Shown here in pieces: positions 17,706 through 19,820 of a DNA stretch of 64,000 bases; position 1 is the stretch's first letter, and each line of letters starts with the position of its first letter. A program made the translations under genes and the position numbers. The notes under the pieces are model-generated. The model was not told where the DNA came from, searched no databases, and saw nothing but the letters and a program-made list of their open reading frames with translations. The stretch covers positions 186,001-250,000 of the forward strand of contig OZ237739.1 in the NCBI GenBank assembly GCA_965178125.1. The letters are read 5' to 3'. The DNA comes from Bilabrum cf. latius. Its lineage: Eukaryota.

Positions 17706-19820
17706 ATGAGCTAGCCTGTATTCGCTAGGAAGCGCTCTCGGAAGCAGAGGTCCTCGAGGTAGCGAGATTAGGAGGAGGACGATGACTTGCTAGGCTAGTT
17801 GATGCAGGAAGCCGAGCAGGAAGGAGCCTACGTACCGGCCAGGAAACGCAGAGAATTGGAGCAATAGCGGAGAGAAGACACGCTTGCATCCGTACGAAGG
17901 GCCGTCGCAGACTCTGAAGACCAGGACGAGCCGATCAAAGGTCCGTCTTTGCCGGCCGGAGCCTATACTGGACGCGGCCCAGACGCATCAGCCTTGCAGG
18001 CAGCCCTTGCTCGGGTTGAATCAAAGCTTCAATCAGCATCAAACTCGTCGGCAGCGGGGCAAATTGCGTCTGGTAGCGCTGCAGAAGAGGCAGCCCTCGG
18101 TGCTAGTTCGAGCGGCACGCCGTCCACGGCCGCGGCTCCGCCCGAACGGCCACCGGCGAGCAGCGGCGCTGGCTCGAGCGCCCCAGGCGGAACTTCTCTA
18201 TTGGATGAAGCTCGTCGCCTGCGCGAAGCTGGCGAGCTGCGCGACAAGACCGACGCCGAGAAGAAAAAGGAGCACGAGGCCGACCTCTTGCGGCAGGTGA
18301 TGCAGATGCAGACACACGCGCTGGAAAGCGCCAAGGAACACGCGGAGGGAAAACGATATACGGAAGCTCTCAAAACAGACTGGGTAGCGCCCGGAAAATA
18401 CCTAGCCATGACGGACCGCCAGAAGGCCGAGATCCGCGGCAAGTACAACATACTGGTGGAGGGCAGGGACATCCCGCCCGCCGTCAAGTCCTTCAAGATG
18501 ATGAGGCTTCCGGCGCCCATCCTGGCGCACCTTCGCTCGAAGGGGATCAAGAAACCCACGCCCATCCAGCTGCAGGGCATCCCGGTCGCTCTCTCGGGCC
18601 GGGACATGATTGGGATCGCATCGACGGGGAGCGGCAAGACCATCGTGTTCACGCTCCCGCTGGTCTGCTTTGCCCTGCAGGAGGAGCTAAAAATGCCCCT
18701 GGTGGGCGGGGAGGGCCCCATCGGGATCATCATGGCGCCCGCAAGGGAACTGGCGCGGCAAACCTGCGAGATCGCGCAGGAGTACTGCGACGCTCTCGCG
18801 TCCACGGGGCAGTTCCCCAGGCTGAGGGCGGGGCTGCTGGTGGGAGGGGAGAGCTCCAGGGAACAAATGCAGCCGCTGAAGGAGGAAGGCCTGCACATCA
18901 TCGTGGCGACGCCGGGCCGCCTGCTGGACCAGCTGAAGCGTCGCAACATGTCCCTGAGCCTGTGCAAGTACGTGTGCCTCGACGAGGGCGACAGGATGCT
19001 TGATTCCAACTTCGAGGAGGACATCAAGGGCATCTTCTCCTTCTTTGAGCACCAGAGATAGACCCTCATCTTCAGCGCCACCATGCCTAAGCGCGTGGAG
19101 GACTTCTCCAGGGGGGCGCTCACCCTGCCTGTTGTTGTGAACGTGGGGCGAGCGGGCGCCGCCAACCTCGACGTGATCTAGGAGGTCGAGTACGTCAAGG
19201 AAGACGCGCGGCTGGTCTACCTGCTGGAGTGCCTCAACAAAACGGAGCCTCCCGCAGTGGTGTTCGCGAGCAGGTCACGGGAAGTGGACGAAGTGCACGA
19301 GTACCTGCTGCTCAAGGGGGTGGAGGCGGTGTCGGTGCACGGAGGCAAGCCGCAGAGCGAGAGGAAAGAGGCGATCGTCCAGTTCAAAGAGGGCAGCAAG
19401 GACGTGCTGGTAGCGACAGACGTGGCGGCGAAGGGTCTCGATTTCGCCGACATCAAGCACGTGATCAACTACGACATGCCGCAGGAGATCGAGACCTACG
19501 TGCATCGCATCGGCCGCACGGGCCGTGGCGGCAAGACTGGAGTCGCGACCACGTTCATCAACAAAGGTGTGGACGAGACGGTGCTGCTGGACCTAAAGCA
19601 CCTGCTCCGCGAGGCCAAGCAGCCCATACCCCCCGTGCTCGCCTCTCTGCCCGACCCGCTGGATGCGGAGGAGAGAGACGAGGAGGGGCGTCTGGTCGTG
19701 TGCGCCTATTGCGGGGGCCTGGGGCACTCCATCTCGGTGTGTCCCAGCCTGGAACGTGTCAAGAGGAGGCAGGCCAGCGCGGCTGCGGGCAAGGATGGGC
19801 TCAAGGGGGGGGACTACTGA
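17706..19820 (+). CDS. DDX41: DEAD-box RNA helicase DDX41/Abstrakt, 704 aa
   Basis: [51 protein letters not shown] and the C-terminal CxxCGGLGHxxxxC knuckle. Seven in-frame TAGs (17712, 17760, 17769, 17796, 17865, 19059, 19179). Ends TGA. Confidence 0.96.

Follow-up and report, generated by a model that had tools for sequence, protein, structure and literature searches.

The window analyzed here (contig OZ237739.1, positions 186,001–250,000 of the forward strand; 64,000 nucleotides) contains genes that are interrupted by TAG triplets when read by the standard code, and UAG very probably encodes glutamine (Gln) in the cytoplasmic translation of the organism, with UGA as the main stop codon and UAA as a second terminator, which is the pattern of NCBI translation table 15. 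UAG is a sense codon in nearly all genes of the window: it stands at positions where Gln is conserved, is kept in mRNA, and leaves the coding signal uninterrupted. The central case is the gene for a DDX41-type DEAD-box helicase, an expressed and conserved protein whose homology runs unbroken across its TAG codons. An initial annotation, made from the letters of the window alone, had proposed UAG = Gln genome-wide; the support for it covers only the 64-kb window and one 4.9-kb contig of a relative.

Reading Frames of the Window

The GC content is 57–64% across 4-kb segments of the 64-kb stretch, which contains no N, in agreement with the high GC content noted initially. By the standard code, the window looks nearly devoid of genes: the longest stop-free frame has 579 codons, and in a random control of 100 first-order Markov sequences, the longest frame averaged 340 codons and never exceeded 482. 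When TAG is opened, the window gains 16 stop-free frames that are 600 codons or longer (1710, 1700, and 1494 codons for the three longest), whereas the standard code gives none and any random sequence at most one. Opening TAA instead of TAG leaves the set of frames nearly unchanged. Opening TGA creates frames everywhere, as expected since no other stop triplet is so common in DNA of high GC content, yet does not produce very long ones.

The gene set consists of 19 long, non-overlapping open reading frames (ORFs), 15,516 codons in total, which end in TGA (15/19) or TAA (4/19). In-frame TAG occurs 103 times and at least once in 18 of the 19 ORFs, so the initial statement that most genes contain it holds; the sole TAG-free ORF is the glycine-cleavage T gene. 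Among 807 putative Gln codons, CAG accounts for 544, CAA for 160, and TAG for 103 (12.8%). Within the ORFs, TAG is found 103 times in frame and 108 and 72 times in the two other frames; TGA is the commonest off-frame stop triplet (234 and 284) and is found in frame 0 times.

TAG Codons of the DDX41 Gene

The DDX41 ORF contains TAG at residues 3, 19, 22, 31, 54, 452, and 492:

17706–19820, + strand: DEAD-box helicase of the DDX41 type (Pfam PF00270, PF00271), intronless, 704 codons, 7 TAG, TGA stop
17712–17867, + strand: five N-terminal TAGs (residues 3, 19, 22, 31, 54) in a charged, poorly alignable tail
19059–19061, + strand: TAG at residue 452, in the motif QTLxFSAT; Gln in 120/120 homologs, human DDX41, and the relatives' proteins P0392, P0512, and P0513
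19179–19181, + strand: TAG at residue 492, in the motif LDVIQEVEYV; Gln in the same 120/120 homologs, human DDX41, and the same three proteins

The alignment with human DDX41 (8c6j_CD) is a single unbroken stretch (residues 162–699 vs. 84–615, E = 1.8e-195), and the TGA of the ORF sits five residues past its end. The human residue is Q opposite both core TAGs. The columns were drawn from the best 120 homologs (8,000 candidates were scored in the search), and the ordinary CAG/CAA residues 288, 290, 352, 387, 550, and 639 of the same protein likewise have Q in 120/120 each. Both core TAGs were found exactly in the contexts described initially (the second as NLDVI*EVEYVK), and the Gln stated there for DDX41 orthologs at the two sites is borne out by these columns. 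The columns at the N-terminal TAGs are of little informative value. Recoding of the pyrrolysine or selenocysteine type was considered and is ruled out by the Gln in conserved columns.

Transcripts Across the TAG Codons

Transcript-like contigs from three runs (X5, X6, and X7), which belong to two studies, both different from that of the DNA, were compared with the window and with a DNA run (X1). None of the listed records is marked as RNA; that X5–X7 are RNA is deduced from their spliced introns and from one poly(A) tail. The following neighboring features are involved:

13507–14664, + strand: fatty-acid hydroxylase (Pfam)
15071–16180, − strand: exon of the glycine-cleavage T protein (GCV-T; Pfam), no TAG; served as query for relatives
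~16252–16335, − strand: intron of ~84 nucleotides (nt) upstream of the GCV-T exon, seen in transcript contigs
20958–20960, − strand: TAG within YMERL-TAG-ENVKML, an SSXT-like stretch in the spliced reading of a gene with three exons
20977–21063 and 21139–21231, − strand: the two spliced introns of the SSXT-like gene, with joints in X5 and X7 contigs and CT..AC on the + strand

The X5 contigs are gene-sized: 1531, 1336, 1041, and 2085 letters correspond to 13354–14884, 14945–16251, 16451–17491, and 17727–19811. Three introns (84, 87, and 93 nt) are skipped in the contigs, with CT..AC on the + strand, that is, GT..AG for minus-strand genes, and the DNA run X1 passes straight through all of them. 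A poly(A) run ends one contig at 14921, 3′ of the + strand hydroxylase gene. Over 13300–21500, the contigs show 0 differing letters, 0 insertions, and 0 deletions relative to the window.

DDX41 is covered by X5 (17727–19811), X6 (17695–19752), and X7 (18575–19184) with 0 differing letters. Contigs of all three runs cover both core TAGs, and that of X6 begins at 17695, 5′ of the N-terminal TAGs. UAG is therefore retained in the mRNA: CAG, which editing would leave in its place, is not seen, and the contigs keep TAG unaltered, with room for rare edited molecules. The TAGs do not lie inside spliced introns either, since no joint falls within DDX41, which is without intron, while neighboring minus-strand genes are spliced in the same contigs.

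These observations bear on the reading of the TAGs as artifacts, that is, as the result of pseudogenes, assembly error, UAG-to-CAG RNA editing, or unrecognized introns. No support for such a reading was found in the analysis, and its probability is negligible: RNA contigs of two other studies match the DNA over the TAGs and are spliced elsewhere, homology is unbroken across the TAGs, and the ORFs hold 103 TAGs in frame against no TGA, even though TGA is the commonest triplet off frame.

Other TAG Sites

Outside DDX41, the TAG sites that could be set against homologs include the following:

10169–11605, − strand: Fpg DNA glycosylase (Pfam)
11396–11398, − strand: TAG of the Fpg gene (residue 70), in the motif RKGK-x-LW; column tally given below
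26263–26265, − strand: TAG at residue 37 of ORF 21598–26373, in the motif L(I/L)L(G/S)QS; Q in 2/2 homologs

The Fpg column, drawn from the best 150 representatives, has Q 62, H 34, Y 17, N 11, V 7, L 5, and I 4; the residue at this site is N in Arabidopsis Fpg and Y or F in bacterial Fpg. Gln is thus the commonest residue among these representatives, although the column is variable. As to whether conserved columns favor another residue than Gln, Gln has 120/120 at the two DDX41 sites and 62/150 at this third one. The TAG at 26263 is opposite Q in the paralog 29848–34164 and opposite CAG in an ORF on L001, a contig of a relative. TAG corresponds to Gln at the two DDX41 sites, at the Fpg site, and at 26263, and the informative sites are limited to these few.

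At 20958, an SSXT motif had been proposed initially. Once the two introns are removed, the gene reads ...DHVLLENEALIIAIKD...YMERL-TAG-ENVKML, and we take this stretch, judged by eye, to be SSXT/GIF-like; the likeness is visible in the spliced reading, but Pfam gave no match to the lone exon.

The giant low-complexity proteins of 21598–26373 (− strand), 29848–34164 (− strand), and positions 1–1911 (− strand) of L001 have a common N-terminal module, F-x-G-x-x-x-R-P-A-x-(D/E)-L-(I/L)-L-x-Q-x. This module looks SH2-like; the Pfam SH2 E-values were 0.07–0.21, below the cut-off for a match, in two of the three sequences tried.

UGA and UAA as Terminators

UAA and UGA act as stops. The GC content at third codon positions (GC3) was compared over 60 codons on either side of a codon, for which 92 internal TAGs were usable (11 of the 103 lie too near an ORF end). 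Around these 92 TAGs, GC3 is 0.686 before and 0.686 after, whereas across the terminal TGA/TAA codons, the mean falls from 0.711 to 0.532. For UGA, termination is further indicated by its position at the end of 15/19 ORFs and by the end of DDX41 near the end of the human alignment. For UAA, four ORFs end in TAA, and GC3 drops at each of the four (0.60 to 0.47, 0.88 to 0.62, 0.67 to 0.50, and 0.70 to 0.52). The third of these lies in one of three tandem paralogs:

45605–45607, + strand: TAA stop of the paralog 42410–45607, aligned with the TGA stops of the other two paralogs; GC3 0.67 to 0.50

The C-termini of the three, TMVTVRGAPPPK, TIVTVSGPAPQ, and TFVSVKGARPR, stop at one aligned position, with TGA, TAA, and TGA, respectively. 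The aligned paralog ends are evidence, independent of the ORF definition, that this TAA is a real terminator.

The retention of UAA as a stop distinguishes the preferred reading from one in which UAG and UAA both encode Gln (table 6 type) and UAA is merely rare through high GC. TAA is indeed rare overall (169 on the + strand of the window), so that a few sense TAAs could be missed, and the ORF definition precludes internal TAA. However, TAA ends 4/19 ORFs with lower GC3 after each, one of the four is aligned with the TGA stops of two paralogs, and the regions aligned to homologs (DDX41, Fpg, and GCVT) contain 3 TAGs and 0 TAAs, so that no in-frame TAA was found at a Gln position. A table 6 type of code is accordingly very improbable.

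A core of ~90 residues, which includes the invariant NGPGTPIFAIALAFFLSDAHSFRLCMQVPMVFQGEALRAL, is common to the tandem paralogs of 39551–49576 (+ strand; n = 3; 901, 1065, and 839 codons). The family gave no Pfam match, and no relative was found among metagenome or viral contigs.

Evidence Weighing Against the Reassignment

Several observations count against this reading of UAG. The TAG sites in informative columns number only three or four. Because ORFs are bounded by TAA or TGA, the absence of both in frame is partly built in. The paralog alignments cover 17 TAG positions, of which four are opposite gaps and 13 are ungapped, and Q is opposite only 3/13 of the latter (alignments at 30–53% identity); the remaining ten partners are A (3), L (2), E (2), V (1), K (1), and R (1). 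The pairs 47384/40331, 42686/39848, and 26263/33904, which had been offered initially as internal evidence, are real, but as they make up just 3/13, that evidence is weaker than presented. In the poorly aligned N-terminal part of DDX41, the column of residue 54 has E 72, Q 18, and gaps 13 (n = 120), residues 19 and 22 are opposite mostly R, and residues 3 and 31 are opposite mostly gaps. No tRNA or Rfam match was found in the 64-kb window or in L001, and the eRF1 gene lies outside the window.

The N-terminal DDX41 columns, in which E or R outnumber Q, and the A, L, E, K, and R among the paralog partners speak for UAG being read through by near-cognate tRNAs or encoding another residue (Glu, Lys, Tyr, or Leu). 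The disagreeing alignments are, however, low-complexity or 30–53% identical regions, whereas Gln occupies 120/120 rows in both invariant DDX41 columns and leads the tally of the Fpg column, and this alternative is less probable even than a table 6 type of code.

The remaining points concern the ends of ORFs. The last six codons hold 4 TAGs where 0.76 are expected (in 3/19 ORFs: 13507–14664, 27259–29817, and 29848–34164), and the last decile of the ORFs has 19 TAGs against ~10 per decile, with CAG/CAA flat. Some TAGs may therefore still be terminating. Two of the ends are as follows:

14656–14658, + strand: TAG as second-to-last codon of the hydroxylase, followed by TCG TGA; the relative's ortholog likewise ends Ser-TGA
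27262–27282, − strand: last seven codons TAG TAG CAG CTG GAG TAG AAG, followed by TAA (27259–27261), of ORF 27259–29817

TAGs within Gln-rich runs (22021–22029 and 27265–27282) had been counted initially as signs of a Gln codon; the runs are real, and the second falls within the last seven codons of its ORF, an end that is either a Gln-rich tail or a series of relic or still working TAG terminators.

Codons that are context-dependently stop or sense have been described for Condylostoma and Blastocrithidia. An ambiguous code of this kind, in which UAG is Gln within genes yet a terminator near some mRNA 3′ ends, would account for the excess in the last six codons, the excess in the last decile, and the TAG TAG ... 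TAG AAG TAA end of ORF 27259–29817. The same pattern is predicted if near-terminal TAGs are relics of former TAG stops, as they may be, and translation has come to run on to the following TGA or TAA. The Ser-TGA end common to the hydroxylase and its ortholog in the relative favors read-through of the TAG-TCG-TGA end to a conserved terminus, the ambiguous codes described in the literature consulted deplete the dual codon before true stops rather than enrich it (PMC11687900), and a statistic drawn from 19 genes has little force (about P = 0.01–0.04 by our own arithmetic). Residual UAG termination is the main rival to the relic-stop reading, and an unlikely one.

Proposed Mechanism

Under UAG = Gln with UAA retained, a tRNA-Gln with the anticodon CUA would decode UAG but not UAA, and its simplest source would be a mutated copy of tRNA-Gln(CUG). 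CUA is the sole anticodon that reads UAG without UAA, an argument made in PMC5304391 for Iotanema and for the rhizarian exLh. Recognition of UAG by eRF1 would have been lost or weakened, and a code of the table 15 type predicts changes in the eRF1 motifs that recognize stops (GTS, NIKS, and YxCxxxF). In a GC-rich, UGA-dominated genome, UAG would have been rare as a stop, which would have eased its capture.

Relatives and Phylogenetic Placement

The window is cellular eukaryotic nuclear DNA, with spliceosomal introns and polyadenylation, and the organism is a GC-rich, gene-dense, intron-poor microbial eukaryote. Among contigs of viral and prokaryote genomes, the search for DDX41 relatives gave just distant DEAD-box genes (33–38% identity).

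With GCV-T as query, the protein collection yielded P0122 (99% identical) and P0123 (80%). P0123 comes from L001 (4,915 bp), a contig in which the hydroxylase–GCVT gene order is conserved, at 83% identity to the window for GCV-T and 70% for the hydroxylase. L001 also contains a 637-codon ORF with four in-frame TAGs, of the same family as 21598–26373 and 29848–34164, which extends the code to at least a sister species.

DDX41 of the lineage is present in the protein collection only as C-terminal pieces, none full-length: P0392 (99% identity), P0512 (90%), and P0513 (88%). Metagenome pipelines typically use the standard code. C-terminal pieces only are expected if standard-code callers break the genes at TAG. 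The called ORFs of the three proteins are uninterrupted and have Q at 452 and 492; if they were called with the standard code, the codons of the relatives at these two sites, TAG in the window, would be CAG or CAA. P0392 begins at the GTG of residue 379, and in the window, no earlier ATG, GTG, or TTG follows the Gln codons 358 and 369; the start of P0392 would fit a standard-code caller if codon 358 or 369 were TAG in that strain.

The named best matches of GCV-T are stramenopiles throughout, save one record labeled Symbiodinium sp. KB8. The GCV-T tree places the window together with P0122 and P0123 in an 11-row group apart from the ochrophyte and oomycete groups, and the only named record of this group is that same Symbiodinium record. 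The best named DDX41 matches (61–63% identity) are diatoms and brown algae, with mosses and chytrids scoring about the same, and the DDX41 tree, in which long branches meet, gave no placement. By its best hits, the organism appears stramenopile-like; single-gene trees leave it unplaced.

We tentatively consider, at somewhat less than even probability, that an independent and fairly recent UAG-to-Gln change, undescribed in print, took place in a GC-rich, UGA-terminating, non-ciliate protist lineage, with relics of TAG stops and with TAG/CAG swapping between strains and sister species.

Other Features of the Window

Pfam matches were obtained for a few of the ORFs; those without match are lineage-specific and low-complexity. 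Two further matches are:

2852–5131: leucine-rich repeat (LRR) protein (Pfam)
5371–6492, − strand: C2H2 zinc-finger array (Pfam)

The tandem finger units of the zinc-finger gene are near-identical (H(L/H)GERKHECSVCGKRFG...). Simple DNA repeats at 12460–12668 and within 39551–42256 and 42410–45607 encode, in frame, long runs of the dipeptides (Ala-Gly)n and (Ala-Pro)n. The ORFs 52672–54915 (− strand) and 55434–57851 (+ strand) form a divergent paralog pair with 31% identity over ~140 N-terminal residues; their C-termini are coiled-coil-like and Glu/Lys/Gln-rich, and the pair gave no Pfam match.

Significance and Comparison with Known Codes

The finding is of interest to research on genetic-code evolution. 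Reassignment of UAG alone with UAA kept is described for a handful of nuclear genomes, namely Iotanema and three ciliate lineages, and with UAG = Leu for a rhizarian and some ciliates (PMC5304391, PMC11687900), and every such case informs the question of why UAA and UAG usually change jointly. A carrier with 57–64% GC and mostly TGA-ended genes breaks the link of recoding to AT-rich, UAA-terminating genomes and fits codon capture with UAG already rare as a stop. Since public strains and a sister species (83–99% protein identity) exist, the order of events (the changes in the tRNA and in eRF1 and the accumulation of TAG through CAG-to-TAG transitions) is traceable within one lineage. In practice, standard-code gene callers fragment the proteins of this organism. 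If a recent non-ciliate reassignment did occur, it would provide the kind of host needed by giant viruses that read TAG as Gln.

The code itself is not new. In the openly accessible papers searched, no GC-rich or stramenopile eukaryote with UAG = Gln was found. The nearest counterparts are compared below.

In Iotanema spirale (Metamonada, Fornicata), UAG is Gln, with UAA and UGA as stops, and eRF1 has T32G in the GTS motif (PMC5304391). As in the window, UAG alone has become Gln and UAA is retained as a terminator; Iotanema, however, is an unrelated anaerobic flagellate known from a transcriptome, with UAA as primary stop (PMC5304391), whereas TGA ends 15/19 ORFs here. Table 15 is also used by the phyllopharyngean ciliates Hartmannula sinica and Trochilia petrani and by Protocruzia tuzeti (PMC11687900). 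TAG is a minority Gln codon in most genes in these ciliates as in the window (18.5–31.8% vs. 12.8% here), but UAA is the stop of >90% of their genes and the sampled GC content of Phyllopharyngea is 27–54% (PMC11687900), in contrast to TGA-dominated termination at 57–64% GC in the window.

UAA and UAG both encode Gln (UAR = Gln, table 6) in ulvophyte green algae, hexamitin diplomonads, Streblomastix, Amoeboaphelidium, and many ciliates (PMC11687900). The change is likewise from stop to Gln, and a tRNA-Gln(CUA) would be expected in both situations; in those lineages, UAA is also Gln, whereas here, TAA ends 4/19 ORFs, one of them aligned with paralog TGA stops. UAG is Leu in the rhizarian exLh and in three uncultivated phyllopharyngean ciliates from TARA Oceans metagenomes (PMC5304391, PMC11687900); UAG is uncoupled from UAA there as it is here, but the residue is Leu, and the columns of the window are Gln. 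In Amoebophrya sp. ex Karlodinium veneficum, which has an AT-rich genome, context determines the reading of each of the three stop codons, and suppressor tRNAs were proposed (PMC12005148). In-frame stops in expressed, essential genes are common to Amoebophrya and the window, where they are TAG only. The window matches table 15 in its in-frame UAG at Gln positions and in its UAA and UGA stops, and the difference lies in the carrier, which is GC-rich, mostly TGA-ended, and neither ciliate nor fornicate.

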